From Nitrosomonas europaea (GTDB lineage: Bacteria > Pseudomonadota > Gammaproteobacteria > Burkholderiales > Nitrosomonadaceae): 32,000 nucleotides of DNA. The translations under genes and the position numbers were made by a program. The DNA lies in assembly GCF_900167395.1 (NCBI RefSeq), contig NZ_FUWK01000025.1:11882-43881 (forward strand), read 5' to 3'. Of the stretch, positions 14,917 through 31,011 are shown piece after piece. The notes beneath the pieces are model-generated. The model was not told where the DNA came from. It ran no database searches and saw nothing but the letters and a program-made list of their open reading frames with translations. The stretch's first letter is position 1. Each line of letters begins with the position of its first letter.

Positions 14917-15666
14917 CTAGTGATTTTTCTTTTCTAACTCCGCTTTGATATCTTCTGCGATAGCTTGGTAAAGCGGGCGAAAAATCGGGCGCATATTGCT
15001 GATAATACTGTTGATTTCTACCATGGATGGGAAACGCAGACCACGATGCTCGACGGGTGCGCCGATGGGTTCCAGTTGCGCACCTAGTCTGCTGAAGTGA
15101 CTGGCCAGCCGTTCTTCGGTTAGCATGAAAAGTACTCTGATATCGTGTATGCGTGCCAGTTCGATTGTGCCGATATAAAGACTCAGCGGAATGTAGGGAA
15201 AGCGCATCATTGGGCCTGTACTAAAATCTTCTTCAGAAATATTGATAGGATGATTCTTTTCACCTTTTCGCCGGCGAAAGGCGGCGATAACAGCAAGACG
15301 GGAAACTTCACCAATTTTATCTGCCGGTAGTCTGGACGGATCTATGATGGAGCGGTCGAGCGTCTGAGCACAGGTTTTCTCAAAGGGCAAGCGCCTGTCG
15401 TTACTGTTTGATGACGGACGGATGATACGGGTACAGCCGATGAATGTATCGTTATTGATACTGCGAATTAGAAGATGTAGTGAGTGGGCATCATATTCAT
15501 CTATCTCAAATCCGTCAGATCGTGAAGATTCAAACTGCAAATCTTCGCAATAAACGGAGTGACGGACGCGATAAGCCTCACGCTTCAACTCTTCGGTCAA
15601 TGCTGGCACGATTTTGAAGTACTGCCTGAAAGAAGTGCCCAAATGGCTATTTTCCTGGGTAAACAC
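14917..15666 (-). CDS. PEP-CTERM/exosortase system-associated acyltransferase (N-acyl amino acid synthase-like, GNAT/LuxI-related)
   Basis: FRQYFKIVPALTEELKREAYRVRHSVYCEDLQFE, EIDEYDAHSLHLLIR and IGEVSRLAVIAAFRRRKGE match my recollection of the TIGR03694-type family. The start is non-ATG: GTG 15666, or TTG 15642 with AGGAAA 8 nt upstream. Confidence 0.75.
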   Translation of the reverse strand: MFTQENSHLGTSFRQYFKIVPALTEELKREAYRVRHSVYCEDLQFESSRSDGFEIDEYDAHSLHLLIRSINNDTFIGCTRIIRPSSNSNDRRLPFEKTCAQTLDRSIIDPSRLPADKIGEVSRLAVIAAFRRRKGEKNHPINISEEDFSTGPMMRFPYIPLSLYIGTIELARIHDIRVLFMLTEERLASHFSRLGAQLEPIGAPVEHRGLRFPSMVEINSIISNMRPIFRPLYQAIAEDIKAELEKKNH

Positions 15667-15790
15667 GATCGCGTTCGTCTAATGATTAAAGAATTTTTAG
15701 AAATTTAACAGTTAAGACAGTCAAGTAGAGGAAGCACCTCCTGTTTAAGCTGCCCATGGCTTGATGCTTTGGCTCGATCAGTCTGCCGGT

Positions 15791-16564
15791 TCATTCAAGT
15801 CTCTTCAGATAATCCTTGGTGAATATTTTGTCCGGCAGATCACGCAGTTTCATATCCGAGTAATCAAGTACTGAAACTTCACCTGACTTCAGCGCATCTT
15901 CCATGATGATGCGGGTTGGGCGCATCTCGCCGAGAATGTTGTCAAAATTCTCGTAACGGCTGGTCTTTAGCAATCGACCCGAAACAGAGTAGAACTCTGC
16001 TTTATACGGCCTGAAATTGGATTGATTTACCCATAACAACACTTTCTGGTAAGTGACTGAGCGATCTATACCAGTAAGTTCAAGGACATAGTAGTCTTCA
16101 TCATCGATTGATTCATTACGCAGCAGTTGCGGATGATAGTCACCAGTAAAGTTGGCGCGAGCAATATCACCGTTGGCAACCTGGCCGGTCAGCCGCTGGG
16201 AAAGTGATAGCCGTATCGGCTGCGAAACACTGGGCATGAAAACCCATAAATCACGCCCTTTCATGAGAATTGCCTGACCACGCTCGGATGCAGGCTCGGT
16301 AATCATGACGATGCTGTTTTCGTTACCCTTGGAAAGTACTTGGTAACGATACAGATCTTCTGCGTGATCAGGAGCAGCTGTGCGAATAGCGACATTGACC
16401 TGAAAGCTGTCCTGCGGGAAGCGAATTTCATCCGCTTTTTCCAGTATACTTTGGGCGGTTACGGCAGATTTTTCAGTTTCCACCGGGGATGAAAACGATG
16501 TGCCTCCCTGAGCCAGTAGAAAACAACCTGTTATCAATGAAAGTAATAAGGAATATAAGTTCAT
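15791..16564 (-). CDS. LolA-like periplasmic carrier (outer membrane lipoprotein-sorting protein family)
   Basis: ATG at 16564 (GGAG RBS) gives a signal peptide MNLYSLLLSLITGCFLLAQGG. Family-like stretches are GRDLWVFMPSVSQPIRLS, ANGDIARANFTGDY and YYVLELTG. The 40-aa extension in the ORF track overlaps the divergent ATPase gene. Confidence 0.75.
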   Translation of the reverse strand: MNLYSLLLSLITGCFLLAQGGTSFSSPVETEKSAVTAQSILEKADEIRFPQDSFQVNVAIRTAAPDHAEDLYRYQVLSKGNENSIVMITEPASERGQAILMKGRDLWVFMPSVSQPIRLSLSQRLTGQVANGDIARANFTGDYHPQLLRNESIDDEDYYVLELTGIDRSVTYQKVLLWVNQSNFRPYKAEFYSVSGRLLKTSRYENFDNILGEMRPTRIIMEDALKSGEVSVLDYSDMKLRDLPDKIFTKDYLKRLE

Positions 16565-16631
16565 ATTCAATCTCCATGAGTAAACTGTCCGGGTTAGACT
16601 ACCCTGAAATCGTTCGTTCGGGGCCAGACAA

Positions 16632-17327
16632 GTGAGCAGCATCGTCCGCATTGAAAATGTATTCAAGGAATATACGCTCGGCACAAGCCGGGTTCATGCA
16701 CTCAAGGATATCAATCTGCAAATCGGAAATGGGGAGTTTCTAGCCATTGCCGGTCCTTCAGGTAGTGGAAAATCAACATTGCTTAATCTAATCGGTTGTA
16801 TCGATATTCCGTCTTCCGGAAAGATTTATATCGATGACCGGGATACTAGCGGGCAAACGCCAGATCAGCTATCAGAACTCAGAGCTAGAACTATCGGCTT
16901 TATTTTTCAGACATTTAATCTTTTTTCAGTCTTGTCAGCAGAGGAGAATATTGAATACCCTTTGCTGCAATTCAAGGAATTGCGTGCTGCTGAACGCCGT
17001 GAGCGGATTGTAAAATTTCTCGACATTGTCGGGCTGGCCGAGTTTGCCGATCATCGACCTAATCAGTTAAGTGGTGGCCAGCGCCAGCGTGTCGCAATCG
17101 CCCGCGCTCTCGCCACCCATCCCAAAATCATCCTGGCGGATGAACCAACCGCCAATCTCGATCACAAGACAGGCGAAGGTATTCTGCAATTGATGAAGGA
17201 CATCAATCGCAACAGTGGTACGACTTTCATTTTTTCAACGCATGATGCCAAAGTAATGGCCATGGCGGAGCGTTTGATACGCATCGAAGACGGACAGCTT
17301 GTCGGGGAAGATGCCGTTCATACCTGA
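16632..17327 (+). CDS. ABC transporter ATP-binding protein, LolD/MacB type
   Basis: GTG start. Walker A GPSGSGKST, signature LSGGQRQRVAIARAL, Walker B ILADEPT. Confidence 0.9.
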   Translation: MSSIVRIENVFKEYTLGTSRVHALKDINLQIGNGEFLAIAGPSGSGKSTLLNLIGCIDIPSSGKIYIDDRDTSGQTPDQLSELRARTIGFIFQTFNLFSVLSAEENIEYPLLQFKELRAAERRERIVKFLDIVGLAEFADHRPNQLSGGQRQRVAIARALATHPKIILADEPTANLDHKTGEGILQLMKDINRNSGTTFIFSTHDAKVMAMAERLIRIEDGQLVGEDAVHT

Positions 17328-17338: not shown

Positions 17339-18838
17339 ATGATTCTATACCCCCGTAGCGCTGTACTGGATTGCTTCGGCACGGCGTCTTCGCAAAGACG
17401 GGGTGTGGTGGCGCCAGCCAGTTTTTCACAGATCACAGGGCAGTCAGTCGGAAAAATCGGGGTTCTGTTCCTGTTGCTGATGGTGTTGTGGAGCGCGAAT
17501 CTCTGCAATTCCTCAGACATTACACCACTTTCTGCAAACAGAGCGAACGTCGGGCAGATGGTGCAAGCGTTTACCTTCGATGATTTATTCAAAGAGGATG
17601 GCCCCAGTTCCGATCTACCACAACGTGTATTCCGGCAAACTTCTTCCTGGCGCGGATTTTCGCAACTGGAATTTGCTGAAACGATTGCCAGCCCCAAACA
17701 TGCATCAAAACTGCGTTTGCGTTCTGAACTATCGAATCTTGGCCAGTTGAGCCCAAACGTAAAATGGAAGCTGAGTGCCCGCATCGATTACGATGCAATC
17801 TACGATCTGTCTGATTTTTATTCGCGTCAGGTACGCCGGGATCAGCGGTTTGAGCTATTTCTGCGGGAAAATTATCTGGATTTTTCGATTGCTGATTTCG
17901 ATGTCCGTGTAGGTCGCCAGCATATCGTCTGGGGAGAAATGGTTGGGCTGTTCTTCGCAGATGTCGTTTCCGCCAAGGACATGCGTGAGTTTGTGCTGCC
18001 TGATTTCGATATTCTGCGTATTCCGCAATGGGCTGTCCGTACTGAGTATTCCAAAAATGACTTTCATGCTGATCTGATCTGGATTCCATTTGCCAGTCTG
18101 GATGAGATTGGTCGGCCAGGGGCTGATTTTTACCCATTCAAGCTCCCCGTTGCTGCACCAGTCAGTTTTTTGAAAGAAGATCGCTCCGGGCGCAACGTCG
18201 CTCACTCGAATTATGGAATCCGGCTATCCCAGCTGACGAATGGCTGGGATGTCTCTGCATTTTATTATCACAGTCTCGATGCCACCCCTACTTTCCACCG
18301 GATCAGCCAGCCCTGGGAACCGCTGCTGTTTCAGGCACGCCATGGAGAAATCGACCAGGCGGGCGGGACAGTGACTAAAGACTTGGGATCGGCGGTACTC
18401 AAGGGAGAATTCGTTTACACGCATGGACGTCGCTTCAACGTGACCCGCCCGACTGCAGCGGATGGTCTGGTACGGCAGGATACTATTGATTATGCACTGG
18501 GGCTGGATTTCACACTACCATCGGATATCCGGCTGAATTTGCAGTTCTTTCAGCGCGCGTATCTGAATTATGATCGGGATATTTTTCAGGATCGGCTGGA
18601 AAACGGGGGCAGCATTTTTCTGCAGGGAGACTTATGGCGCGATTTTCAGGGGCAGATATTGTTGATCCACAGTTTCAATCGTAATGAATGGATGCTGCGT
18701 CCGCGCCTTACCTGGAACTTCGCCAGAAACTGGAAACTGGCGGCAGGTGCAGATATTTTCAATGGCCCTCCCACTGGACTGTTCGGCCGGTTTGACAGCA
18801 GCGATAGAGTATATACCGAGCTGCGTTTTTCTTTTTAG
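17339..18838 (+). CDS. secreted outer-membrane beta-barrel protein (DUF1302-like impression)
   Basis: Hydrophobic signal segment GKIGVLFLLLMVLWSA. VRVGRQHIVWGE motif. C-terminal beta-signal VYTELRFSF. The start is uncertain (ATG 17339, or GTG 17405/17408 after a CGTCTT-CGCA-AAGACG hairpin at 17386-17401). Confidence 0.55.
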   Translation: MILYPRSAVLDCFGTASSQRRGVVAPASFSQITGQSVGKIGVLFLLLMVLWSANLCNSSDITPLSANRANVGQMVQAFTFDDLFKEDGPSSDLPQRVFRQTSSWRGFSQLEFAETIASPKHASKLRLRSELSNLGQLSPNVKWKLSARIDYDAIYDLSDFYSRQVRRDQRFELFLRENYLDFSIADFDVRVGRQHIVWGEMVGLFFADVVSAKDMREFVLPDFDILRIPQWAVRTEYSKNDFHADLIWIPFASLDEIGRPGADFYPFKLPVAAPVSFLKEDRSGRNVAHSNYGIRLSQLTNGWDVSAFYYHSLDATPTFHRISQPWEPLLFQARHGEIDQAGGTVTKDLGSAVLKGEFVYTHGRRFNVTRPTAADGLVRQDTIDYALGLDFTLPSDIRLNLQFFQRAYLNYDRDIFQDRLENGGSIFLQGDLWRDFQGQILLIHSFNRNEWMLRPRLTWNFARNWKLAAGADIFNGPPTGLFGRFDSSDRVYTELRFSF

Positions 18839-18874: not shown

Positions 18875-20086
18875 TTATATATTTTGTCGTAAGGCATCAA
18901 CAACTGGTATACGTGAAACATGCCTGGCCGGCAGTATTGCCGCTAGTACAGTAGCAGTAAAGCCGATGCCTAATGCGAGTAGTAAAACAGACGGTGCGAT
19001 CTGGATTCGGGCGATATAGCCAAGATCAGCATTGGGAGGGGGGGGCATGGGGATACCTATGGCGGAAATGGCCGTGGCCAGCAGTACCCCTATCCCGATT
19101 CCTAATCCTCCCCCAATCAATCCCAGTAAAAGGTTTTCACTGATAATCAGCCGGAATACCTGATGGCTGTCATTACCCAGGGCCATCATCGTGCCGAATT
19201 CACCCACGCGCTCGAAAATACTCATATTGACGCTGTTGGCAACGCTGAGCAGTACCATGATCAGGATAATGATCTGCAGCACACCAAATTGCCCTTTATA
19301 CATTTCCACCGTTTTTTCGTAAAAATCATTCAGTTCCACCCAGGTTTTGACTTCCAGGTCTGATGGTCCTAATGATTGCTTTAACTGTGCTGCAATCTGA
19401 TCGGTTTCTTCTGTATGTTTCAGTGAAATGACGAGTGCGTTGACTCCTTGAGTGCCGAGCAGCTCCTGTGCGGCAGCTAACGGGATTCTGACAGCGCGTG
19501 CATCAAAATCGTTGGAAAAACTCTGGAAAATACCCGTTACTTGAAAATCCAGACTATTGAGCGCACCATCAAGCGTGTTGACCAGTAATGTCACCGGGTC
19601 ACCCGGTTTTAATTGCAGTGCCTGAGCGACACCTTTACCCAGCAAAATGCCGAATGTATCTTCGTCACTTAGCTGTCGTCCTGCGGTAATCTGTACAGAG
19701 CTACCCAGTTTCACTTCGTGTGACGGTTCCACACCCTCACCAATGATCGGCAGATCACTTTTACCATTGTTGAGCAATCCGGAGAAATTGAGCCGTGCCA
19801 TGACCTGCGCAACTTCAGTTTCACCAGCAATTTGTTGCCTGATAGTATCGGGCGTATCTATCAGATATTTTTCCGGAGAACGTGAGCCGGCTTCATAGTA
19901 CCCTTGGCGATAGATTTGCAGATGTCCACTTTGCGAGTGGATGAGCGCTTCACCCAGTTGAACATAGATATCCTGTACCCATCCACCCGCCAGAATGATA
20001 CCGGTTACTCCGGCGATAACTGCTGCCAGCGTCATCAGCGTATGGGTTTTTTGACGGAGGATATTGCGTAACGCGAGTTTGAACAT
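18875..20086 (-). CDS. ABC transporter permease, FtsX/MacB/LolC-E type (paralogue 2)
   Basis: 403 aa. N-terminus MFKLALRNILRQKTHTLMTLAAV. One TM, a roughly 230-aa periplasmic domain, then three C-terminal TMs. GGAGA RBS. Confidence 0.85.
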   Translation of the reverse strand: MFKLALRNILRQKTHTLMTLAAVIAGVTGIILAGGWVQDIYVQLGEALIHSQSGHLQIYRQGYYEAGSRSPEKYLIDTPDTIRQQIAGETEVAQVMARLNFSGLLNNGKSDLPIIGEGVEPSHEVKLGSSVQITAGRQLSDEDTFGILLGKGVAQALQLKPGDPVTLLVNTLDGALNSLDFQVTGIFQSFSNDFDARAVRIPLAAAQELLGTQGVNALVISLKHTEETDQIAAQLKQSLGPSDLEVKTWVELNDFYEKTVEMYKGQFGVLQIIILIMVLLSVANSVNMSIFERVGEFGTMMALGNDSHQVFRLIISENLLLGLIGGGLGIGIGVLLATAISAIGIPMPPPPNADLGYIARIQIAPSVLLLALGIGFTATVLAAILPARHVSRIPVVDALRQNI

Positions 20087-20154: not shown

Positions 20155-20772
20155 TTACAATAACGAGAAACTGCGCAGAATGGCTTCGACTTTCTTATCC
20201 TCCTTGGCAAGTTCACGCAGGGCATGGATCAATCGCGTAAGCTTCGATCCTTCAGGTGACTGAAGCTCCAGATCACGTTCGAGATCTTCCTCCAACCGCT
20301 GTAATCGCATATCCATGGGCCGGAGTGTCGAATAGCGGTCCCATATGATGAAGCCGATCAAACCGAATATGCCAGCGATCGTTACCAGCATCAGCTGTTG
20401 TATAAAATCCAACCGCCGGTCGATAGCTTCAAAACGTTGATCTACCGCAATAAAACGCTGATCTATCTGCTTCTGCATAGCAGTAAAATGTTGATCTACC
20501 GCCGTAAAACGTTGATCTACCGCCGTAAAACGTTGATCCATCTGCTCCTGCATAGCAGTAAAACGCTGATCTATCGCCGTAAAACGCTGATCTATCTGTT
20601 CCTGCATAGCATTGAAACGCAGATCCATCTTTTCTTCCAAAGCTTTTTGCCCGGCTTTGAGTTCTGCCAGTGACTCGATAATTTCTCGATCACTGATACG
20701 TGGTGCGACGTCTACGGCGGCAACAGGCATGGCGACCAATACGCTGGTAAGTAATAACAGGATTTTGATCAT
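20155..20772 (-). CDS. signal-peptide + tandem-repeat coiled-coil + single-TM + charged C-tail protein, unknown function
   Basis: 205 aa. MIKILLLLTSVLVAMPVAA signal, nine xDQRFxA units, TM LMLVTIAGIFGLIGFIIW and a C-tail rich in E/R/K/L. It lies between the two permease genes on the same strand. Confidence 0.6.
   Translation of the reverse strand: MIKILLLLTSVLVAMPVAAVDVAPRISDREIIESLAELKAGQKALEEKMDLRFNAMQEQIDQRFTAIDQRFTAMQEQMDQRFTAVDQRFTAVDQHFTAMQKQIDQRFIAVDQRFEAIDRRLDFIQQLMLVTIAGIFGLIGFIIWDRYSTLRPMDMRLQRLEEDLERDLELQSPEGSKLTRLIHALRELAKEDKKVEAILRSFSLL
20404..20628 (-). repeat. in-frame tandem array of 21-nt and 33-nt units (9 units)
   Basis: Unit boundaries read off the DNA: 33 nt (20596-20628), 21 (20575-20595), 33 (20542-20574), 21 (20521-20541), 21 (20500-20520), 33 (20467-20499), 21 (20446-20466), 21 (20425-20445), 21 (20404-20424). 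Units 20500-20520 and 20521-20541 match at 19 of 21 nt. Confidence 0.9.
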
Positions 20773-21021: not shown

Positions 21022-22269
21022 TTATCGATTATGCCTTAACGCATCTACAATCTGCATGCGTGAGGCTTTCCAGGCGGGGTAAACGCTGGCGATGAGTGTG
21101 GTGAGAATAGCAAGCGCCAATGCTTCCAGCACCATGTTCGAGGTGAGTAGTATCTCCCCGGTATAACCACGGGCCATGCCGGGGGGAGGAGGCATCGGAA
21201 TGCCGATACTGGAAATAATTGCAGCGAGCAACCATCCGATTAGTATACCTAGCGCGCCGCCTATCCCGCCGATCAGAGCGCCTTCGCATAGAAACTGGCG
21301 CAGAATGTCGAATTTCTTTACACCCAATGCCATTGCTGTTCCGATTTCGCCGGTACGTTCCACCACGTTCATCGTCATGGTATTGGAGATGCCGAGCAGA
21401 ATGATGAGTGCAATGATCAGCTTGATGGCTTGCACCTGCTTTGTAAACAGAACGGTTGTTTTATTGTAGAAATCAGCCAGTTGATACCAGGGAACGATTT
21501 CAAAGCGATCTTGCGATAATGTGTTACGTAACGCCGCCAGTGCTGCATCGGTTTGGTGGGTGTCGTTCAACAGTACTACCCAACTGTGAGCTCCCTGGGT
21601 ACGCAATAACTGCTGTGCGGTGCTGATCGGCAGGCGCAATGCATTGTCATCATACGATTTGGTAACGGTAGAAAACAGGCCGTCGATAGTCATTTCAACG
21701 GCATTGATTCCACCTGTTGCCGTGTTCACCAGTAACACCACCTGGTCGCCTACCGTAACGCCCAGATTACGAGCTAACCCTTCTCCCATGATGAGATGAT
21801 CAGGGTGGTCGGCCGATAAATTGCTTCCAGTCGAGATCTTGAGCGCGTTACCGAAGTAAACTTGCTCTTGCGGATCCACTCCTTCGCCAATGAATGAAAG
21901 CGTGGCATCACCGTGACTAATCAACCCGCTGAAGCTCAAACGCGGCACAATCGTTTTGATCAGATGATTGCTGTTTTGAAGCGTAGGATTTTCCAATAAA
22001 TCCTGTTCCAGATCATCTGAGAATAGAAAACGGTAGGGATCAGCCTTGCCGGCTTCAAAATAACCCGGTTTAATGATCTGTAAATGGCCTAACTGGGAAT
22101 GGATAGTGGATTCACGCATATCCTGATAAATCCATTCGATGAAGCCGCTGGCCAGAATCAGTGCAACCATTCCCAATGTTATGGAGCCGATAGAAATGGT
22201 GCTTCGGCGTTTCTGGCGCAGCATATTGCGCCAAATTAAATAGCAATTAAAAGAAATTATTTTCCACAT
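21022..22269 (-). CDS. ABC transporter permease, FtsX/MacB/LolC-E type (paralogue 1)
   Basis: 415 aa. LIWRNMLRQKRRSTISIGSITLG N-terminus and the same 1+3 TM layout. It shares the IGIPMPPPP loop with paralogue 2. Confidence 0.85.
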   Translation of the reverse strand: MWKIISFNCYLIWRNMLRQKRRSTISIGSITLGMVALILASGFIEWIYQDMRESTIHSQLGHLQIIKPGYFEAGKADPYRFLFSDDLEQDLLENPTLQNSNHLIKTIVPRLSFSGLISHGDATLSFIGEGVDPQEQVYFGNALKISTGSNLSADHPDHLIMGEGLARNLGVTVGDQVVLLVNTATGGINAVEMTIDGLFSTVTKSYDDNALRLPISTAQQLLRTQGAHSWVVLLNDTHQTDAALAALRNTLSQDRFEIVPWYQLADFYNKTTVLFTKQVQAIKLIIALIILLGISNTMTMNVVERTGEIGTAMALGVKKFDILRQFLCEGALIGGIGGALGILIGWLLAAIISSIGIPMPPPPGMARGYTGEILLTSNMVLEALALAILTTLIASVYPAWKASRMQIVDALRHNR

Positions 22270-22438
22270 GCTGTAAGTTAGCTTTAGTTTATATCAATTG
22301 TTTTATGGCTTATTTTTGTCAGATGATGAGTTGTTAACATACCATTATTCCGTCGACTTTCTTTACACTCTTGGTGAAATATAAAAATAAAATTTAATAA
22401 AGTGTTGATTATTAAGTGATAAATATTCTGGCACATAT

Positions 22439-23349: not shown

Positions 23350-23378
23350 TTTTTATTGTTTTTAGGTAGTCAGAAAAA

Positions 23379-23564: not shown

Positions 23565-24150
23565 TGGCTAACTCATAGAGGTAAGCTCCCGGTTTTGCCG
23601 GGGGGGCTCACCAAGGTTTGACCTTTACGACGAAAGAGTATCAGAGTCTGAGTCACACGAGATGGGACTGCAAGTATCATGTGGTGTTCATACCGAAGAG
23701 GCGCAAGAAGCGAATATTCGGTATGCTGCGTTGGCACTTGGGCGAGCTATTCCACGAACTGGCCTCCCACAAGGAATCGAAAATTGTCGAAGGTCACCTG
23801 ATGGACGATCACGTTCATATGTGCATCAGCATTCCCCCGAAGTACGCGGTGTCGAACGTGGTTGGGTACTTGAAGGGGAAGAGCGCGATCCAGATTGCGC
23901 GCAAGTTTGGCGGGCGACAGAAGAACTTTACCGGCGAGCATTTTTGGGCGAGAGGCTATTTTGTTTCGACGGTTGGATTGGACGATAACATTGTTCGAAC
24001 GTACATCCGCAACCAGGAAGATGAGGACGAGCGCTACGACCAGATGAAGCTGGAAATATAGGGTAGCCGCCAGGGGCGGCTCACGGTTTCATGGGCGCCT
24101 TTGAGGCGCTCACCACCCAAATCACCGGCTTTGCCGGTGGTATTTGACTT
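23565..24150 (+). mobile_element. IS200-group (IS200/IS605 family) insertion sequence; boundaries approximate
   Basis: Single tnpA gene flanked by similar subterminal hairpins: left CTCCCGG-TTTTG-CCGGGGG (23586-23604), right CACCGGC-TTT-GCCGGTG (24123-24139). Extra hairpins GCCGCC-AGG-GGCGGC and GCGCC-TTTGA-GGCGC follow the stop codon. The exact ends cannot be set without a second copy. Confidence 0.8.
23618..24061 (+). CDS. tnpA: IS200/IS605 family Y1 (HUH) transposase TnpA
   Basis: 147 aa. SLSHTRWDCKYHVVFIPKRRKK, HUH motif DHVHMCI, catalytic Tyr context RTYIRNQ. TTG is the only in-frame start after the upstream stop at 23582-23584. Confidence 0.9.
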   Translation: MTFTTKEYQSLSHTRWDCKYHVVFIPKRRKKRIFGMLRWHLGELFHELASHKESKIVEGHLMDDHVHMCISIPPKYAVSNVVGYLKGKSAIQIARKFGGRQKNFTGEHFWARGYFVSTVGLDDNIVRTYIRNQEDEDERYDQMKLEI

Positions 24151-24175: not shown

Positions 24176-25864
24176 ATGGAATATCAATCATTACCATTAC
24201 CCGCCGCGCTAATTGCAGAGCTCCAAGCTCAGCTTGGAAAAGACAAGGTCGTTCTGGAGCAGGATGCGCTGGAAGTTACCACACGAACTTGTATTCCTTA
24301 CCGGGAATTACCGGGAGCTATTGTTTATCCGGAGAGTGTAGAGGAGGTGCAGGCTATCGTTCGACTCGCAGCAAAGTTTAACGTACCGGTATGGCCGGTC
24401 AGTACTGGGAAGAACTGGGGGTACGGCGAAAAAACAGCATGTTATCCCGGTGGCATTACAGTGGTGCTGGAACGCATGAATCGGATTCATGAGGTTGATG
24501 AGGCTCTAGGCTATGCGGTAATTGAACCTGGTGTGACCTATAAGCAGCTTAACGAATTTTTAAAGGCTAATTATCCTGATCTCTGGTCAGATTCGGCGGG
24601 GACTACACAATTTGCCAGCGTTTTGGGTAATGCGCTGGATAAAGGCCGTGGGTTAACCCCTTATGCGGATCATTTTGGGAGCTTATGTGGTATGGATGTT
24701 GTTTTGCCTGATGGCAGGCTGCTTGAGACCGGTGGCGGACCGCAAGGTAATAATCATGCAAAATATGTATACAAATGGGGGGTGGGGCCTTATCTCGATG
24801 GTTTGTTTACTCAGTCCAATTTTGGCATTGTTGTCAAGGCGGGTATCTGGTTGATGCCCAAGCCTGAGTGTTTTGACTGGGCCGCTTTTGAATATACCGC
24901 TTCTGATGAAAAATTCGGTGATTTTATTGATGAGTTGAGGCAGCTTGTTTCGCAGGGCGTTTTGCGCTCACGCCCACATCTTGCCAATGATTTTGCCATG
25001 ATGTGTATCATTTCACAGTATCCGTATGAATTGCTTGATGGTAAGAAATATTTGAGTGAGGCTGCACTGGAAAGCTGGCGCCGTCAGCATGGTGTTGCAC
25101 GTTGGACATTTGGTTGTGGTTTGTATGGTAGCCAGGCGGAAGTACGGTTTCAGAAACAGGCAATTAAGCGCGTACTTGGCCGTTATGGTCGGGTCCAGTT
25201 TTTGGGTGCGGCTGTTGAAGATAATTGGTATGGGCGTTTACTGCGTCAAGTTGCGCCAGTAGTAAACCGGTTGATGGGTAAGTCCGATGCTTTTATGGAA
25301 GCATTGATTCCCGGAATTAATTTGTTCCGAGGTATTCCTACAGATTATTTTGTTCGTCAGGTTTATTTCAAATCACATCCACAGAAACCTGCAGATGATG
25401 TCGATCCGGCACGCGACCAGTGTGGCCTGTTATGGATAGGGCCAATAGTACCGTTTACTGCCAAGCATATTTTGCATGCTCTGACTCTGGTTAAGGAAGT
25501 ATATACCCGACATGAGTTTGATTTTTTTGTAGAGCTGATTATTGAAAGTCCACGGACGATTATCTTGCTGGTGGGAGTATTTTATGAACGGAATAATGCT
25601 AATGAAATAGCGCGTGCCCAAGCCTGGTATAAGGATGTACGTGAGCTATTCTTGCAAAATGGTTACCCTCCATATCGAACTACTACGATGAGTATGTCTG
25701 GATCACTGGATCAGAATCCGATAGCAAGAGATTTTCTGAAGATGATCAAAGGTGTTATTGACCCGCAAGATCTGATAGCACCAGGGCGGTATGGCGTTTC
25801 AGGATTATCTGGGGCTGATTCTTCTTTGGTTGCTCTCAAGCAGGCAGATAATGATCCGTATTAA
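24176..25864 (+). CDS. FAD-binding oxidoreductase, vanillyl-alcohol oxidase / p-cresol methylhydroxylase (VAO/PCMH) family
   Basis: PVWPVSTGKNWGYG, GPYLDGLFTQSNFGIVVKAGIWLMPKP and C-terminal IDPQDLIAPGRYGV closely resemble the VAO sequence as I remember it. Start is ATG 24176 (or TTG 24167), with no obvious RBS. It lies about 25 nt from the IS200 right end. Confidence 0.8.
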   Translation: MEYQSLPLPAALIAELQAQLGKDKVVLEQDALEVTTRTCIPYRELPGAIVYPESVEEVQAIVRLAAKFNVPVWPVSTGKNWGYGEKTACYPGGITVVLERMNRIHEVDEALGYAVIEPGVTYKQLNEFLKANYPDLWSDSAGTTQFASVLGNALDKGRGLTPYADHFGSLCGMDVVLPDGRLLETGGGPQGNNHAKYVYKWGVGPYLDGLFTQSNFGIVVKAGIWLMPKPECFDWAAFEYTASDEKFGDFIDELRQLVSQGVLRSRPHLANDFAMMCIISQYPYELLDGKKYLSEAALESWRRQHGVARWTFGCGLYGSQAEVRFQKQAIKRVLGRYGRVQFLGAAVEDNWYGRLLRQVAPVVNRLMGKSDAFMEALIPGINLFRGIPTDYFVRQVYFKSHPQKPADDVDPARDQCGLLWIGPIVPFTAKHILHALTLVKEVYTRHEFDFFVELIIESPRTIILLVGVFYERNNANEIARAQAWYKDVRELFLQNGYPPYRTTTMSMSGSLDQNPIARDFLKMIKGVIDPQDLIAPGRYGVSGLSGADSSLVALKQADNDPY

Positions 25865-25896: not shown

Positions 25897-26967
25897 ATGT
25901 CTCGTTGTAAACGTTGTCTACTTCCCCATAGTGCGCCCGGCGCTGCAGTTGATTCAAGCGGAATATGTGCCTTTTGCAGATCTTATGTACCTAATGATAA
26001 AAACTTGTCTGATCAGTTACATCAGCAGCGTCAGCTTGATCTCGAAAAAGCGCTGGCGGATTGCCGTGGCAAGGGGCCCTATGATGTTCTGGTTTGTTTG
26101 AGCGGAGGGAAAGATAGTCTTTATTTGCTTTACCGGCTAAAGGTTGAGTATAAGCTGAATGTATTGGCATTTACTACCGATGTCAATATTCCCGATATCG
26201 CTTGGAATAACATTCATCGAACCATTCAGAAACTGGATATTGATCATCTGGTATATCGGCCTTCTGCTCAGTTTTACCGCAAACTTTTTCGATATTTACT
26301 CATGAATCAGGAAGAGCGCGGTGCTGTTTATACAGTTTCCTATGTATATGCTCCGCTGTTTGAAGGGGATGCACTGCAAGTAGCGATGGAAAAAGGCATT
26401 CCTCTGGTGCTCGCGGGTTATTCACCAGGACAGCCAGAGCCGGAGCGGATGGAGTTTGAATTTTCGCGCAAGCTGATTACTGAAACAGACTGGACACCTC
26501 CCGGGTTACGTCAGTCGGGTGAATTTACTGAAGAAGAACTGGCGCGTTTCTGGAATCCGAAACGATTTCCGGCAGATACCCGTTTCCCACGTTATCTCGC
26601 TCCTTTCCATGCATGGGATTATGATCAGGAAGCGATGATCCGCAAAGTGCATGATTTGGAGCTGGTTAAACGGCGAGCACACGGAAACCCAATTTACAGC
26701 AATTATCCGATCAATTGGCTGCTGATGTATTCAGATCTGAAGCATTTTGGCTATAACCCTTATGCACCTGAGTTTTCTGCTTTGATCCGTGCGGGTAAAG
26801 CAAGTCGTGCTTATTGGTGGTTTATGACCCCGATTGTCAATTTCATCATCCGTAATAAGCTATTGATAGGCCGTAATACCGTTGACCAGTTACAGCAGCT
26901 TGGTCTTCAAGAGGATGATTTGAAAATTACTCGACCGCGTGGTGCTTACGATCCGGAAATTGATTAA
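25897..26967 (+). CDS. PP-loop ATP pyrophosphatase family protein, N-acetyl-sugar amidotransferase (WbuX/WbpG)-like
   Basis: N-terminal zinc-ribbon cysteines CKRC...CAFC, then PP-loop VLVCLSGGKDS. The 356-aa length fits that subfamily, but the subfamily call is an impression. Confidence 0.7.
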   Translation: MSRCKRCLLPHSAPGAAVDSSGICAFCRSYVPNDKNLSDQLHQQRQLDLEKALADCRGKGPYDVLVCLSGGKDSLYLLYRLKVEYKLNVLAFTTDVNIPDIAWNNIHRTIQKLDIDHLVYRPSAQFYRKLFRYLLMNQEERGAVYTVSYVYAPLFEGDALQVAMEKGIPLVLAGYSPGQPEPERMEFEFSRKLITETDWTPPGLRQSGEFTEEELARFWNPKRFPADTRFPRYLAPFHAWDYDQEAMIRKVHDLELVKRRAHGNPIYSNYPINWLLMYSDLKHFGYNPYAPEFSALIRAGKASRAYWWFMTPIVNFIIRNKLLIGRNTVDQLQQLGLQEDDLKITRPRGAYDPEID

Positions 26968-27036: not shown

Positions 27037-28884
27037 ATGATAGGTAAGGCTGGAATCGGGACGATACTTGATCTGCTGAGAGTACGTAGTGCAGCTACAC
27101 CTGCTGCAACTGCATTTCAGGTTTTGGTTCAGAATAAAAGTTGGCAGCCGACCAATTGGGAGCAGTTTGTACAGGCCGCAGGGCGGGTTGGTGCAAGGTT
27201 AACAGATTTTGGGGTCAGGAAAGGTGATCATGTTGGTATCATGGCTGCAACATCACTTGACTGGGAATATGCCCAAATGGGGGCATTGTTTGCAGGAGCC
27301 GTTGTTGCTGGAATTGACCCTGAGTATCCGGCGGACCAGTTAAATCATGTGATCGAGAATCTTGGGTTGTCAGTCCTGTTTGTTCAGAATCGTTCAGTCT
27401 TCGCAAAAATTCCATTAGAACTTCGTCAGCAGATCAGTGTATTTATTTTCTTTGAGGGTGAATCTCAGCAGAAAAATGAATTCAGCATGATCAATTTACT
27501 GGTAGAGCAAGAAACTGATACTTCTATTTGTTTGCCGGATGTGTTGCCACAGGATGAGGCAGTGATCGTATTTTCTTCTGGTACAACCGGGATGCCCAAA
27601 GCAATTATCTTTACCCATGAACAGGTTATTATGGCGGTTGAGGCCATTATGCGGGTATTTAATGATTTGAGTAGCCAGACGATACTTTTGTGCTGGTTGC
27701 CGTTATCGAACCTTTTTCAGCGTATTGTCAATTTTTGTGCAATAAAAATTGGTGCATCGAGTTACATATTGAGTGATCCGCGTGATTTGATGCGGTACGT
27801 CAAACAGGTGAATCCAGATGTTCTGATCGGTGTGCCAAAGGTACTTGAGCGAGTGCATTCGGGGGTTGTCGACCATATTGAAGGTCGGGTTTGGCCATTG
27901 CGTATGCTGGCGCGATGGGCAATTAGGATAGGTTACAAGCGGGCTGCGGCAAGGAGTGATCGAGGTGATTCTTTTGGTCTGATGAATAAACTGCTATGGA
28001 AACAGGCCGAGAATATGTTTTTACGCCGCCTGCGAATGGTTTTCGGTTCGCGGGTTCGTTATCTCGTCAGTGGATCTGCTGCGATGCCGGTTTGGCTATT
28101 GAGATGGTTTGACGCAATTGGATTACCGGTATATGAAGTTTATGGTATTAGTGAGAATGTTATCCCTGTCGCGGTAAATTCATCTGGCAGCCGTAAATTG
28201 GGGGCTGTGGGTAAACCATTATTGCCAAATGAGATAAAGCTCACTATGGATGGTGAGATCCTTGTTCGAGGCCCAGGAGTGTTCAAGGGTTATCAGGATA
28301 GAAAGGAAGAGAGTAATTTGCGTTTTTCACCAGATGGTTATTGGCACACTGGTGATCTGGGAGAGCTAGATACAGCAGGATTTCTTTCTATTGTCGGGAG
28401 AAAGAGCGATGTTTTCAAAACATCTGCAGGAAAATGGATTGCTCCTGTGAGAATTGAAGAACGACTGGGACGTATTGCTTATGTTGAGCAAAGTGTCGTA
28501 TTTCAATATGAATCAGGCAAAATTGTTGCTGTCATTGTCGTTGATTTGGAGAAATGTGCACAGAAAACCAGTGCAGTGCGCTATTCTGAAGTTTCATTAC
28601 ATATGGAAAATATGGCTAAGAATAAGCTTCATCAAATTCTGGAGACAGATATCAATGCAGAATTGGAAGATCTGCCTCTTTATCAGCGACCGGTTTATGT
28701 TGCTGTGACTGATAAGTTTTTTACGGTAAGCGGAGGGGAGCTAACTGTCAATATGAAGGTGCGTCGCAGTATTGTTGCACAGCGGTTTTCAGCGTACTTC
28801 GAAAATACTGTATGTAAATCTGATCAGGGTCGGGCTGAAAACGGTCATGTAGTTATGAGTGGGCCAACCATTTTTTTTATATGA
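27037..28884 (+). CDS. AMP-dependent acyl-CoA/acyl-AMP ligase (long-chain fatty acid ligase-like)
   Basis: Adenylation motifs VFSSGTTGMPKAIIFTH, EVYGISE and WHTGDLGELDTAGFLSIVGRKSDVFKTSAGKWIAP. 615 aa. Confidence 0.85.
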   Translation: MIGKAGIGTILDLLRVRSAATPAATAFQVLVQNKSWQPTNWEQFVQAAGRVGARLTDFGVRKGDHVGIMAATSLDWEYAQMGALFAGAVVAGIDPEYPADQLNHVIENLGLSVLFVQNRSVFAKIPLELRQQISVFIFFEGESQQKNEFSMINLLVEQETDTSICLPDVLPQDEAVIVFSSGTTGMPKAIIFTHEQVIMAVEAIMRVFNDLSSQTILLCWLPLSNLFQRIVNFCAIKIGASSYILSDPRDLMRYVKQVNPDVLIGVPKVLERVHSGVVDHIEGRVWPLRMLARWAIRIGYKRAAARSDRGDSFGLMNKLLWKQAENMFLRRLRMVFGSRVRYLVSGSAAMPVWLLRWFDAIGLPVYEVYGISENVIPVAVNSSGSRKLGAVGKPLLPNEIKLTMDGEILVRGPGVFKGYQDRKEESNLRFSPDGYWHTGDLGELDTAGFLSIVGRKSDVFKTSAGKWIAPVRIEERLGRIAYVEQSVVFQYESGKIVAVIVVDLEKCAQKTSAVRYSEVSLHMENMAKNKLHQILETDINAELEDLPLYQRPVYVAVTDKFFTVSGGELTVNMKVRRSIVAQRFSAYFENTVCKSDQGRAENGHVVMSGPTIFFI

Positions 28885-29996
28885 ATACCTATTTTATTAC
28901 AGGCGCTACTGGGGTTCTTGGTAGTGCGATTGTTAAGGAACTGCTTTCGAACCCCGAGAACCGCCTGGTGCTTCTGGTGCGTGCCGAGAATGAATTGGTG
29001 CTACAAAAGCGTATTACAGAGTTGTTATCGTTTCTTGGGGTTGGTGAGAAAACTCGTGACAGAATGGATTTCATACGGGGTGATGTAGAGCTTGAGCGAT
29101 TTGGCTTGCATCCAGGTAATTTTATAAAATTGGGAGATCAGGTCACACATATCATTCATAGCGCAGCCAGTGTTCGTATGAACTACTCACTTGAGCGGGC
29201 GCGCCTTGCTGCAGTGACTGCAACTGAGCATGTATTGCAGCTGGCACGATTAAGTCGTAAAAATGGATTACTCCAGAAAATGGAGGCAGTAAGTACGGTC
29301 GGTGTAGGAGGTAGATATTATGGCGCTTTACCAGAACAATGGTTGAATACACCAAGAAATTTTCACAATACCTATGAGCAATCGAAAGCCGAAGCTGAAA
29401 TCATACTCAAAACTGAAGTTGATCAGGGAATGCCAATTACTGTTCATCGTCCCAGTATGATTGTTGGAGATAGCCAAACAGGACGCATATTAAACTTTCA
29501 GATTTTTTACTATTTGCTTGAATTTATTACGGGCCGTCGCACTTGGGGCGTAATGCCTGATATTTCTGATCGGCATGTGGACGCGATTCCTGTGGACTAT
29601 GTTGCGCGAGCAATTTCCTGGTCAAGTAAAAATCCTGAGACAATTGGCAAAATATTGCACTTGTGTGCCGGGCTGGAAAATATCACATCATTAGAAAATG
29701 CTGAAAAGCTTGCGCGCTCCAAGTTTATGAAAATGAATTTGCCCGTACCACACAAACGAGTTTTACCTGTTGCCCAGTTCAGGTTTTTGGTGAACAGCGT
29801 TACTCCATTCCTTCCCAGAAAAATCAGGCGATCAGTCAGTGCATTACCCATCTTTCTAAACTATACAAAAAACCAAATCTTTGATAATACCGAAACAAAT
29901 ATAATTCTTAGTAGTGCGGGGCTTCAAATGCCCCGCTCAGATGAATTTCTTGGGCCAGTAATTGACTACTATCTTTCACAAGCTTATTTGACGTAA
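28881..29996 (+). CDS. thioester reductase-type SDR (NAD_binding_4 / fatty acyl reductase-like)
   Basis: Rossmann motif ITGATGVLGSAIV and catalytic YEQSKAEAE. Its ATG overlaps the ligase stop (ATGA at 28881-28884), implying translational coupling. Confidence 0.8.
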   Translation: MNTYFITGATGVLGSAIVKELLSNPENRLVLLVRAENELVLQKRITELLSFLGVGEKTRDRMDFIRGDVELERFGLHPGNFIKLGDQVTHIIHSAASVRMNYSLERARLAAVTATEHVLQLARLSRKNGLLQKMEAVSTVGVGGRYYGALPEQWLNTPRNFHNTYEQSKAEAEIILKTEVDQGMPITVHRPSMIVGDSQTGRILNFQIFYYLLEFITGRRTWGVMPDISDRHVDAIPVDYVARAISWSSKNPETIGKILHLCAGLENITSLENAEKLARSKFMKMNLPVPHKRVLPVAQFRFLVNSVTPFLPRKIRRSVSALPIFLNYTKNQIFDNTETNIILSSAGLQMPRSDEFLGPVIDYYLSQAYLT

Positions 29997-30027
29997 ACTC
30001 CTTCTATTACTCGCTATCCAAGATGGC

Positions 30028-31011
30028 TCAGGATTGATGGTATTTCATTTCATTTACATTTTCTATCTGGGTTGTCTGTAAATATTTTAGATAATCCCAA
30101 TAGCCATAAAATACTGCTGTTTCATTGACCAGATTTTCCCGCTTAAATATTTCATGTATTTTTGGCAGATTGCACCAAGCCACTCCAGGAAAGAAATGGT
30201 GATACGCATGCAATGTAAAATTGAGGTTGGGTAATATCAGTTTTTCCCACCAGCTTAATATAATTAATGAGGAAGATTCAATGATGTTTGCTTTGGGTAA
30301 GTTATAGACATGTTCGCAAACAGCACCTAGGCGCACGATTAAGGGTGTAAATGTCATTAATGGCAATAGCCAGTAAACCAGAAATACTGGCCACAATTCT
30401 AAGTAAGTCAATAATACTGCAACGATGATGTAGAATCCGGGCCGCAGCCACTTCGGAATGGGGTGTGGGCGATTGTAAACATTCTTATTCTCCAGGCGTT
30501 TTCCTTTCAGAATCCTGTAAAAACTCAGCCCACTCAGATCGCTCAATAGCAACTTGATCAGATGTCTAGTGGACATTGGAAATGTCCAGTCCGGGCCGGC
30601 CTTGCGCAAAAAATCCGGATCATCTTCGGTGAAATAATACTTGTGATGAGATAAATGGACTTTGGCATAGTCCTCCACGGTAATGCCTATCGGATAAGCA
30701 GTCAGGATATTGGCCAGCGTATCACCGTATCTCCCTCGTAAACCGAGCTGGTGTACCTGTTCATGCACCAGTAACCCCAGAATATTGAAACGTGTGGCAA
30801 TGATCGGTATGGCAAGTGCAGTCATCCAGATATTGTCGATATGGATAGCTAGCGCAATGACTGCAATGATGATTCCCCAGGCACCACCGGCCTGTATCAG
30901 GAATTCTTTTGGCCGGGCGCCGCTGAGTGCCTGAATTTCATTGCGTGCCTGTTTGGATAAACGACTTTTATCGCCAGCCAACGCTGGTGAAAGAGTGTGC
31001 GGTTGATTCAT
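30028..31011 (-). CDS. membrane fatty-acid desaturase family protein
   Basis: Three histidine boxes HEQVH, HLSHH and HAYHH, with hydrophobic segments between them. GAGGTG RBS 5 nt before the ATG. Confidence 0.85.
   Translation of the reverse strand: MNQPHTLSPALAGDKSRLSKQARNEIQALSGARPKEFLIQAGGAWGIIIAVIALAIHIDNIWMTALAIPIIATRFNILGLLVHEQVHQLGLRGRYGDTLANILTAYPIGITVEDYAKVHLSHHKYYFTEDDPDFLRKAGPDWTFPMSTRHLIKLLLSDLSGLSFYRILKGKRLENKNVYNRPHPIPKWLRPGFYIIVAVLLTYLELWPVFLVYWLLPLMTFTPLIVRLGAVCEHVYNLPKANIIESSSLIILSWWEKLILPNLNFTLHAYHHFFPGVAWCNLPKIHEIFKRENLVNETAVFYGYWDYLKYLQTTQIENVNEMKYHQS

Follow-up and report, generated by a model that had tools for sequence, protein, structure and literature searches.

Gene content of the cluster

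We analysed a 32,000-nucleotide stretch of Nitrosomonas europaea DNA (contig NZ_FUWK01000025.1, positions 11,882 to 43,881 of the forward strand), hereafter called the window. Positions 14,917 to 31,011 of the window carry a gene for a synthase of N-acyl amino acids (NAS), a Lol-like transport module of the ATP-binding cassette (ABC) type, a PEP-CTERM protein gene and a group of putative tailoring genes. The initial annotation had viewed these genes as a candidate composite system that makes, modifies and exports an amphiphile. Proteins of the window were identified by Pfam and NCBIfam profile searches, and scores were compared with the curated cut-offs. The following features, including open reading frames (ORFs) and an insertion sequence (IS), were found.

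14917..15666, minus strand: NAS, TIGR03694 (290.8 bits against a cut-off of 111.95, residues 11-243 of 249)
15791..16564, minus strand: LolA-like protein NE2245 (PF17131 LolA_like, 176 bits), directly upstream of NAS and in the same orientation
16632..17327, plus strand: ABC ATPase of the DevA/LolD/MacB type (PF00005, 121.8 bits), divergent from the LolA-like gene
17339..18838, plus strand: putative DUF1302 outer-membrane beta-barrel (PF06980, 46.6 bits against a gathering threshold of 23.2)
18875..20086, minus strand: permease 1, a MacB/LolE-like type VII ABC permease (PF12704 and PF02687)
20155..20772, minus strand: ORF for a 205-residue membrane protein between the permease genes, matching no Pfam or NCBIfam family
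21022..22269, minus strand: permease 2, a MacB/LolC-like type VII ABC permease (PF02687 and PF12704)
22429..22444, plus strand: sigma54-type -24/-12 element TGGCACatatcGTGCT, which precedes pepA by about 95 bp (score 10/11)
22540..23349, plus strand: pepA, a PepA-type flocculation-associated PEP-CTERM protein (NF033554 floc_PepA, 158.9 bits against a cut-off of 80)
23618..24061, plus strand: Y1 transposase of the IS200/IS605 family (NF033573, 139.9 bits)
24176..25864, plus strand: flavoprotein of the vanillyl-alcohol oxidase/p-cresol methylhydroxylase (VAO/PCMH) subfamily, 4-alkylphenol oxidoreductase type (FAD_binding_4, PF01565)
25897..26967, plus strand: PP-loop ATP-pyrophosphatase-type enzyme (TIGR03573 (WbuX), 108.3 bits, below the cut-off of 203.2)
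27037..28884, plus strand: long-chain acyl-AMP/CoA ligase, FadD11-like (PF00501, 196.6 bits; NF038343, 230 bits, below cut-off)
28881..29996, plus strand: stand-alone thioester/acyl reductase, NAD_binding_4 (PF07993, 194.6 bits; TIGR01746, 142 bits)
30028..31011, minus strand: membrane di-iron desaturase/hydroxylase family protein (PF00487 FA_desaturase, 121.5 bits)

All the gene classes named in the initial annotation, among them the five tailoring enzymes, are thus present where it had placed them. Its list needs three amendments. The 205-residue ORF had been left out, the most likely start of the LolA-like gene is at 16564 rather than at 16684, and the cluster extends past the window to a second NAS gene.

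On its profile score the N. europaea NAS ranks as an ordinary, full-scoring member of TIGR03694, and it also matches Pfam PF13444, PF00765 and PF21926. Its sequence is 100% identical to that of an NCBI protein assigned to Nitrosomonas europaea. The PEP-CTERM gene of the window lies about 7 kb away. The second NAS, beyond the window, is of the FeeM type and matches the PDB entry of FeeM, 2G0B (1.2e-17). According to family knowledge and to the literature on FeeM and on NAS from environmental DNA (eDNA), such enzymes would produce long-chain N-acyl amino acids from acyl-acyl carrier protein (acyl-ACP) (PMC4897644). In E. coli carrying NAS genes alone, N-acyl amino acids were released and showed surfactant and haemolytic activity (PMC4897644).

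A transport module with Lol-like architecture

Over residues 31-257, the LolA-like protein shows 100% identity to PDB entry 3BUU, 'Uncharacterized LolA superfamily protein NE2245'. The LolA-superfamily fold is thus present in NE2245, though its Pfam family is PF17131 and not canonical LolA. The protein carries a Sec-type signal peptide. A lipoprotein assignment, suggested by the sequence 'LITGC', was rejected because the cysteine is not conserved among orthologues; NE2245 is therefore probably a soluble periplasmic protein.

The best NCBIfam matches of the ATPase are DevA (223.6 bits) and LolD (TIGR02211, 216.6 bits against a cut-off of 307.75), and the scores for DevA, LolD and MacB are all below cut-off. 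The DUF1302 gene follows on the same strand after a gap of 11 bp, a spacing from which co-transcription of the two genes is predicted. Its product ends in ...ELRFSF, with an aromatic last residue. A sequence search of the PDB gave no meaningful match for this protein, so that only the comparison of folds was informative. An AlphaFold2 model built from a 31-sequence alignment had a mean pLDDT of 60, with values of 70-87 in the beta-rich C-terminal two thirds. Foldseek comparison of this model with the PDB gave the 18-stranded alginate exporter AlgE as the best match (E about 1e-6, TM 0.40-0.48), followed by general porins. The outer-membrane barrel label is thus reasonable for a model of only moderate confidence.

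The two permeases are 39% identical to each other, so that the module combines two unlike permeases with a separate ATPase. Their best PDB matches are remote: LolE (6.7e-17) and LolF for permease 1, MacB (5.5e-16) and LolC (3e-13) for permease 2. With the lolCE profile TIGR02212 they score 92.2 and 106.9 bits, respectively, below the cut-off of 362.45. The initial annotation had described a private Lol-like exporter. Architecture and fold bear this description out, whereas the curated LolCDE and LolD cut-offs exclude formal membership (92 and 107 bits against 362; 217 against 308). No HlyD-type adaptor was seen in the window or in the annotated recurrent neighbour clusters described below, partly as judged by eye, and neither the window nor the recurrent neighbours yielded a gene for a TolC-type duct, though a TolC could be encoded elsewhere in the genome. 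There is no gene for a LolB-type outer-membrane lipoprotein receptor; the DUF1302 beta-barrel is encoded instead.

The product of the 205-residue ORF between the permease genes has a signal or anchor at its N-terminus, an 11-residue repeat of the form 'xDQRFTAxxEQ' in about nine tandem copies, a second transmembrane segment and a charged tail. Within the NAS-locus set it was found only in five Nitrosomonas loci, at the same position, and it is classed here as a lineage-specific accessory.

Putative tailoring enzymes

The closest PDB matches of the flavoprotein are 9fge (2.5e-80) and p-cresol methylhydroxylase (6e-73), followed by vanillyl-alcohol and eugenol oxidases (1e-51 to 1e-59). In the alignment, Y95 and Y473-R474 of PCMH match Y and YR of the query, positions which we take to be those that bind the phenolate. 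These similarities place the flavoprotein in the 4-phenol-oxidising VAO/PCMH subfamily. A function as an ether-lipid alkyl-dihydroxyacetonephosphate synthase (AGPS), acting together with the ligase and the reductase, was considered and rejected, since AGPS matched at 1e-5 to 1e-6 as compared to 1e-80 for 4-phenol oxidases.

The PP-loop enzyme has an N-terminal Cys4 ribbon and an SGGKDS motif. It matches PDB entry 8wex over residues 18-137 only (7.6e-7) and is a distant relative of the WbuX/N-acetyl sugar amidotransferases, of the same fold class and probably with a different function. The start of the reductase gene overlaps the stop of the ligase gene by 4 bp. The ligase/reductase pair and the PP-loop enzyme may serve to activate and reduce a carboxylate or an amide. 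The best NCBIfam match of the desaturase is GntB-like (69 bits, below cut-off), and orthologues of this protein occur in loci L016, L022, L031 and L081 of the surveys described below.

Linkage of the transport module to NAS genes

The initial annotation had proposed a census of NAS genes against LolA-like, permease, barrel and tailoring genes. It was run from both ends and came out positive. On the NAS side, one genome per species was scanned, which gave 578 loci with a NAS relative. The best 80 of these 578 were taken with 10-kb flanks. They come from Nitrosomonas, Nitrosospira/Nitrosovibrio, metagenome-assembled genomes of Burkholderiales and Casimicrobiaceae, Azoarcus, Thauera, Zoogloeaceae and other Rhodocyclaceae. 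The set is mostly betaproteobacterial and consists of related genomes, so that the loci are not independent observations. Module genes were counted as orthologue-level hits in tblastn searches with the window proteins. NAS counts were also taken from tblastn; the greedy ORF caller masked some NAS genes of high G+C content behind antisense ORFs (cluster c18).

At least one orthologue of the ABC/LolA-like/DUF1302 module was present within 10 kb of the NAS gene in 59 of the 80 loci, and in 45 of the 60 loci of at least 15 kb. The individual components were hit as follows.

LolA-like protein: 41/80 loci
ATPase: 39/80 loci (orthologues of 64-95% identity)
DUF1302 protein: 38/80 loci
Permease 1: 49/80 loci
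Permease 2: 46/80 loci

As an internal control, the housekeeping neighbours of the window (porin, YajQ, WecB, ManC) were near a NAS gene in only 5-8 of 80 loci. The linkage persisted down to 48% NAS identity. LolA-like and NAS genes were immediate neighbours on the same strand in about 40 loci, consistent with co-transcription. Overall, the census shows gene clustering far beyond chance.

At least six gene orders maintain the linkage in Nitrosomonadaceae, Rhodocyclales and Burkholderiales. Nitrosomonadaceae mostly have the LolA-like and NAS genes, then a divergent ATPase-DUF1302 pair, then the two permeases. In Rhodocyclales the order is permease 2, permease 1, NAS, with permease 1 directly upstream of the NAS gene and the remaining three either a few kb off or at another place. 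The permease pair is inverted or relocated in L018, L025, L038 and L050, and L060 and L079 each have two NAS genes, one adjoining each half of the transporter. That the linkage survived such extensive rearrangement argues for selection rather than inertia. The NAS loci free of the module form clades of their own in the NAS tree; one of these adjoins PrsK (TIGR02916, 816 bits) and another corresponds to the second Nitrosospira paralogue.

De novo clustering of all ORFs in the NAS loci, in which some housekeeping-neighbour annotations were judged by eye, gave further recurrent partners: a ThiF-family protein (PRK08223; 22 loci), a nitroreductase/Acg-like protein (13 loci) and a GT1 glycosyltransferase (11 loci), as well as an S-adenosylmethionine (SAM) methyltransferase, a hexapeptide acyltransferase and a FeeM-type NAS. 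Several PepA-like and THxN-type PEP-CTERM proteins also recur. The NCBIfam families PRK14851 (ThiF fused to nitroreductase) and PRK14852 (FeeM-like, ThiF and nitroreductase) provide independent evidence for a shared pathway.

VAO-family members were present in 16 of the 80 NAS loci. In the Nitrosomonas relatives L001, L007, L008, L014 and L017, we observed a second VAO paralogue, 30-38% identical to that of the window, about 7-9 kb upstream of the NAS gene. It adjoins permease 2 on the opposite strand, often with a PEP-CTERM gene alongside. The VAO partner is accordingly conserved as a class and not as a single orthologue.

Neighbourhoods of the PP-loop gene

The second scan was made with a PP-loop protein alignment against metagenome contigs. 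Its best 80 loci are 61-85% identical to the window protein, and orthologues in this range of identity are known from beta- and gammaproteobacteria and Desulfobacterota. Neighbours were counted in the loci of at least 12 kb (n=21), with the following results.

AMP-ligase gene, coming after the PP-loop gene: 21/21 loci
Reductase gene: 19/21 loci
Any NAS gene, of the TIGR03694 or, more often, of the FeeM type: 14/21 loci
Any part of the ABC/LolA-like/DUF1302 module: 11/21 loci
VAO-family gene: 10/21 loci

The PP-loop, ligase and reductase genes thus form a trio that is contiguous in 19-21 of the 21 loci, in gene orders that otherwise vary widely. In the Nitrosomonas-like L081 the order is NAS, LolA, ATPase, DUF1302, permease 1, permease 2, PEP-CTERM, glycosyltransferase, PP-loop, ligase, reductase, desaturase, FeeM-type NAS. 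In L084, likewise Nitrosomonas-like, a methyltransferase and a VAO gene replace the PEP-CTERM and glycosyltransferase genes of L081, and no desaturase gene was seen. Both loci carry the full set in one block with no IS200.

Exact-sequence look-ups retrieved orthologues of the PP-loop protein, at about 62% identity and each under the name 'hypothetical protein', from Methylomonas sp. LW13, Rubrivivax, Burkholderiales and Desulforegulaceae. The Methylomonas trio has an exopolysaccharide (EPS) priming sugar transferase gene on one side and a PEP-CTERM gene on the other. On a related contig the trio is followed by PEP-CTERM, methyltransferase, nitroreductase-like and ThiF-like genes and two NAS genes. 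Across all 80 PP-loop loci, a PEP-CTERM gene was nearby in only 9.

Searches for homologues of permease 1 and of the DUF1302 protein gave, among the 120 matches listed, only relatives of the Nitrosomonadaceae level (at least 59% identity). Beyond the Nitrosomonadaceae, the view from the module side comes from the PP-loop-centred metagenome loci and from four context look-ups. Look-ups centred on DUF1302 showed that N. cryotolerans has the full transporter, with permease 1 split, together with ThiF, nitroreductase and FeeM genes. N. mobilis has only the NAS-LolA and ATPase-DUF1302 genes locally, and a third contig adds a VAO gene, two PEP-CTERM genes, a methyltransferase gene and a FeeM gene. 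The split orthologue of permease 1 consists of an FtsX part and a MacB_PCD part in two ORFs and was observed in L162 (N. cryotolerans, 11390-12600) and in L163 (11370-12585). These are unrelated assemblies, and the split could reflect a frameshift, a pseudogene or a sequencing error.

A sigma54-type element upstream of pepA

In PepA, the PF07589 PEP-CTERM domain occupies residues 242-262. A strong terminator hairpin lies 3′ of the gene at 23373-23405, and pepA forms a single-gene unit. The element TGGCACatatcGTGCT is the sole good intergenic sigma54-type site in the part of the window scanned (from 12 kb on). A motif scan detected 43 PEP-CTERM ORFs in 37 of 81 NAS neighbourhoods. A sigma54 element scoring at least 10/11 within 300 bp upstream was found for 27 of these 43 ORFs, as compared to 12 of 1215 other ORFs in the NAS loci. 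No consistent sites precede the transporter or tailoring operons in the window and in the 80 loci, where almost none stand before such genes, and the idea of shared sigma54 promoters across the cluster was rejected for this reason.

Single-gene PEP-CTERM operons behind a sigma54 motif and controlled by PrsK/PrsR have been described (Haft 2006, PMC1569441), and a pepA promoter was mapped experimentally in Aquincola (PMC9850573). The arrangement in the window is real and matches both reports, with predicted RpoN-type control, and is to this extent already known. The initial annotation had counted a sigma54-driven PEP-CTERM protein among the parts of the composite system; the element stands, though it would serve pepA only. 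N. europaea has eight PEP-CTERM proteins, an EpsH exosortase (NE1797) and a PrsK (NE1124) (Haft 2006, PMC1569441). The TIGR03694 NAS thus occurs here in a PEP-CTERM/exosortase genome, with the exosortase gene outside the window. Since there are only eight such genes, the presence of one of them inside the cluster is worthy of mention and consistent with the known NAS-PEP-CTERM association.

Mobile elements and flanking genes

The initial annotation had considered that the right-hand operon might be an independently acquired island, as hinted by the IS200 element and by a shift in base composition. The G+C content indeed drops to 0.39-0.46 across 22-31 kb of the window. However, L081 and L084 have the same genes beside the transporter with no IS200, and the element is absent from all 80 NAS loci, so that the island reading is unsupported. 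IS200 inserted locally, between pepA and the tailoring operon, and has no functional part in the system. In this copy (window 23560-24150), which separates the pepA terminator from the VAO gene, the transposase ORF is flanked on either side by G+C-rich hairpins. N. cryotolerans (L162) has a different IS200/IS605 element, located between the NAS and LolA-like genes. Two different insertions in the two species indicate that the cluster is a repeated target or a tolerant site for such elements.

Beyond the desaturase gene, N. europaea carries a HepT-like fragment, an rve-type IS, a nucleotidyltransferase gene, the FeeM-type NAS gene and a second IS copy. The fragment is a short ORF with a 'AVGFRNIAVHQY' (RX4HXY) motif and a PF01934 HepT-like annotation (window 31186-31512, minus strand; L164 9361-9615), and is probably the remnant of a truncated HEPN toxin, adjoining an IS. 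The rve-type (HTH_28/rve) transposase starts at the right end of the window (about 31790-32000, plus strand); the chromosomal copies (L164 4578-5621 and 8166-9209) are identical in length. These two copies bracket the nucleotidyltransferase and FeeM-type NAS genes in a composite-transposon-like arrangement. Overall, the N. europaea cluster is complete in kind and peppered with mobile elements.

The left flank of the cluster consists of housekeeping genes (hslUV, gmk, aspS, manC, wecB, yajQ and a phosphate-type porin gene). The YajQ-family cyclic-di-GMP-binding protein (window 12587-13072, plus strand; NF003819, 219.5 bits) is encoded two genes from the NAS. This adjacency is confined to the N. 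europaea/eutropha lineage and is probably coincidental, though cyclic-di-GMP does bear on the biology of flocs and biofilms. Unrelated to the cluster is a small zinc-ribbon protein of the FmdB family (window 9279-9617, minus strand; NCBIfam 'RPWMISH domain', below cut-off).

Comparison with known systems

Like the LolCDE-LolA-LolB system, the cluster has a type VII ABC machine that lacks an adaptor and consists of two unlike MacB_PCD and FtsX permeases and a separate ATPase, together with a soluble LolA-fold carrier and a dedicated outer-membrane acceptor. In contrast to Lol, it scores far below the LolCE and LolD cut-offs, its carrier belongs to PF17131 and not to the LolA family, and it has a large DUF1302 barrel where Lol has the lipoprotein LolB. 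It is also accessory and NAS-linked, and its presumed cargo is a small lipid. MacB-type permeases (PF12704 and PF02687) and a DevA/MacB-like ATPase are features in common with DevBCA-TolC and MacAB-TolC. Unlike these, the cluster has no HlyD-type or TolC gene in the window or the recurrent neighbours, and has a permease heteropair, a LolA-fold protein and a DUF1302 protein instead. DevBCA offers a precedent, as a type VII ABC system that exports a cell-made lipid, the heterocyst glycolipid. From profile scores and gene content, the cluster is not to be classed with LolCDE/LolA/LolB, because the curated cut-offs are not reached and there is no LolB, nor with MacAB-TolC or DevBCA, because there is no adaptor.

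AmeABCD of the betaproteobacterium Castellaniella defragrans combines DUF1302 and LolA-superfamily (DUF1329) proteins with a resistance-nodulation-division (RND) pump that acts on apolar compounds in monoterpene tolerance (PMC6394551). As in the present cluster, both proteins are encoded with an inner-membrane pump. The cluster differs by its MacB/Lol-type ABC machine, its PF17131 protein and its biosynthetic partners, whereas AmeABCD has an RND pump, DUF1329 and catabolic partners. The cluster would work most like a hybrid of Lol and of such DUF1302/LolA-superfamily/pump clusters, joined to a lipid pathway that is built on NAS.

The NAS and PepA parts rank, by their scores, as ordinary members of known families. 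In agreement with the PepA-PrsK-PrsR-RpoN floc system, the NAS is a full TIGR03694 member, and pepA is a full NF033554 member in a single-gene sigma54 unit. A genomic link between long-chain NAS genes and PEP-CTERM/exosortase systems was reportedly drawn by Craig, Cherry and Brady in 2011. In contrast to the cluster, the link published in the searchable papers is a genomic and phylogenetic association only, and these papers mention neither transporter module nor trio.

The stieleriacine cluster of Stieleria maiorica, from which N-acyl dehydrotyrosines arise, contains several NAS genes together with ThiF/TcdA-like, oxidoreductase, methyltransferase, fatty-acid desaturase and PEP-CTERM genes (PMC7293339). 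These classes of enzyme are found repeatedly in the betaproteobacterial loci as well, and a FeeM-type NAS, as in the eDNA Fee system (FeeM, PDB 2G0B), ends the N. europaea cluster. In contrast, the pathway proposed for stieleriacine includes neither a VAO-type oxidase nor the trio of PP-loop enzyme, ligase and reductase. No role was assigned to putative transporters in that study (PMC7293339), and a term search of its gene table gave no Lol- or MacB-named gene.

In Methylomonas LW13, knockout of a TIGR03694-type gene led to loss of polysaccharide-band formation (PMC11072679). With this phenotype and the N-acyl dehydrotyrosines (PMC7293339), the biology of NAS products is not wholly blank; the initial annotation had tentatively called it undescribed. 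Our literature search, with the full text of Craig 2011 outside its reach, found no paper on the transporter module, on the trio or on their link to NAS and PEP-CTERM genes, the exceptions being the AmeABCD paper and a Borrelia LolA paper that cites 3BUU.

A model for synthesis and export of an N-acyl amino acid lipid

We consider it very probable that the cluster is a real functional gene neighbourhood. That it makes, tailors and exports an N-acyl amino acid lipid is the explanation that we favour, by a modest margin over its being wrong. What we observe are the identities of the genes, the folds of their products, their linkage and the sigma54 sites, the last two being conserved; from these we infer which chemistry takes place, which cargo is moved and in which direction. 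In this model the cytoplasmic TIGR03694-type NAS would condense acyl-ACP with an amino acid, and the FeeM-type NAS may do the same. The product would be modified by a variable set of enzymes: the VAO/PCMH-type 4-phenol oxidoreductase, the near-invariant PP-loop/acyl-ligase/reductase trio and the membrane desaturase, to which relatives would add ThiF and nitroreductase, a methyltransferase or a glycosyltransferase. The head group is probably tyrosine-like, as suggested by the 4-phenol oxidase, the FeeM-type partner and the stieleriacine parallel (PMC7293339). The VAO-type enzyme could then form an alpha,beta-dehydro or beta-hydroxy tyrosine via a quinone methide.

Type VII ABC machines act on outer-leaflet or periplasmic substrates. 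The MacB/LolCDE-like machine of the cluster, with its two unlike permeases and its ATPase, would extract the amphiphile from the outer leaflet of the inner membrane, and the soluble LolA-fold protein NE2245 would receive the lipid and shuttle it across the periplasm to the AlgE-like DUF1302 barrel. There it would be inserted into the outer membrane or released into a matrix of exopolysaccharide and PEP-CTERM proteins. The sigma54-driven pepA gene would be a separate unit inside the cluster under PrsK/PrsR/RpoN-type regulation. Since there is no membrane-fusion protein and there are a soluble LolA-fold protein and an outer-membrane barrel, a model with three steps of extraction, shuttling and insertion is the most economical. 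AmeABCD supports export as a precedent, in which DUF1302 and LolA-superfamily proteins work with an inner-membrane pump on apolar molecules (PMC6394551).

Several points weigh against the export model. The connection between the transporter and the NAS product is drawn from gene linkage. About one quarter of the TIGR03694 loci have no module and form separate clades, by PrsK or elsewhere, and L010, L012, L015 and L161 keep the NAS, LolA, ATPase and DUF1302 genes locally with no permeases. Each scan contributed its nearest 80 loci to the census, mostly from Betaproteobacteria, in genomes that are not independent. The LolCDE, LolD and LolA family cut-offs are all missed, the DUF1302 model is of modest confidence (pLDDT 60) and two relatives have permease 1 divided over two ORFs. 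No sigma54 sites belong to the biosynthetic and transport operons, so that co-regulation with pepA is not indicated, and the N. europaea copy, interrupted by IS, may be partly degenerate.

Alternative explanations

The module could instead handle hydrophobic molecules at the envelope in a general way, be it for self-protection by efflux, for lipid homeostasis of the outer membrane or for uptake. It would then be near NAS genes since the surfactant product is toxic to membranes, and the product would leave unaided or by another route. MacB-type pumps do often confer resistance, the permeases lie apart from the rest of the module in L161, L010 and L012, and DUF1302 and LolA-superfamily proteins serve an RND pump in monoterpene tolerance (PMC6394551). 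The release of products from E. coli with NAS genes alone indicates that dedicated export is not strictly needed (PMC4897644). This explanation remains unlikely to us, as the linkage concerns NAS and tailoring genes specifically and has outlasted many rearrangements, L060 and L079 have a separate NAS gene next to each half of the transporter, and the LolA and NAS genes are immediate same-strand neighbours in so many loci. Mere accident of adjacency, with a left and a right part that are unrelated islands joined by mobile elements in N. europaea, is highly improbable. The IS200 between pepA and the VAO gene, the two rve-type IS copies and toxin-antitoxin fragments at the right end and the low G+C content across 22-31 kb would fit such a history, but relatives (L081, L084, L163) have the same adjacent genes with no IS200, unrelated taxa also have the trio together with NAS and transporter genes, arranged in different orders, and the NAS loci, all free of IS200, contradict it.

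Another possibility concerns the cargo. PEP-CTERM proteins, joined at their C-terminus by exosortase to a NAS-derived lipid, might be carried to the surface by the Lol-like machine, NE2245 and the barrel. Lipid attachment by archaeosortase and rhombosortase offers an analogy for lipidation of PEP-CTERM proteins, and Lol sorts N-terminally lipidated proteins. The transporter indeed resembles a lipoprotein sorter, with a LolC/E-like pair, no adaptor and a LolA fold. The link of TIGR03694 with PEP-CTERM is established and stands in the family name itself, PEP-CTERM ORFs accompany NAS genes in nearly half of the neighbourhoods (37/81), and the cluster holds one of the only eight such genes of N. 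europaea. Loss of the polysaccharide band upon NAS knockout in Methylomonas would fit as well (PMC11072679). We nevertheless hold this idea to be quite improbable. Many loci with PP-loop, NAS and transporter genes have no nearby PEP-CTERM gene (9/80 have one), and the exosortase NE1797 and PrsK are encoded elsewhere in the genome (PMC1569441). Moreover, the VAO, ligase/reductase and methyl- and glycosyltransferase enzymes look like natural-product chemistry and not like synthesis of an anchor, and N-acyl tyrosine-type products have no free amine that could act as the acceptor in transpeptidation. If true, such a route would explain why NAS genes track PEP-CTERM genes, what exosortase attaches its substrates to and how these cross the periplasm, and would constitute a second sorting pathway of the lipoprotein type.

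Implications for PEP-CTERM/exosortase bacteria

PEP-CTERM/exosortase systems underlie floc and biofilm formation in bacteria of wastewater, soil and sediment, nitrifiers included. In the searchable literature, the link between NAS and PEP-CTERM genes has stood with no mechanism since 2011. A single adjacency in N. europaea has now become a conserved parts list found in several lineages, with two types of NAS, a fixed trio, 4-phenol oxidases and an adaptor-less ABC machine with a LolA-fold protein and a barrel. The purpose and destination of NAS products thereby become directly testable: the crystal structure of the carrier NE2245 is solved, and the NAS knockout phenotype was obtained in a Methylomonas strain that also bears a PP-loop orthologue (PMC11072679). 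If the export model is true, a PP-loop family that is more than 60% identical across phyla and now annotated as hypothetical would gain a function, and a Lol-like trans-envelope pathway for small lipids, or in the bolder version for proteins with a lipid anchor, would join the short list of routes for hydrophobic molecules to the Gram-negative outer membrane.

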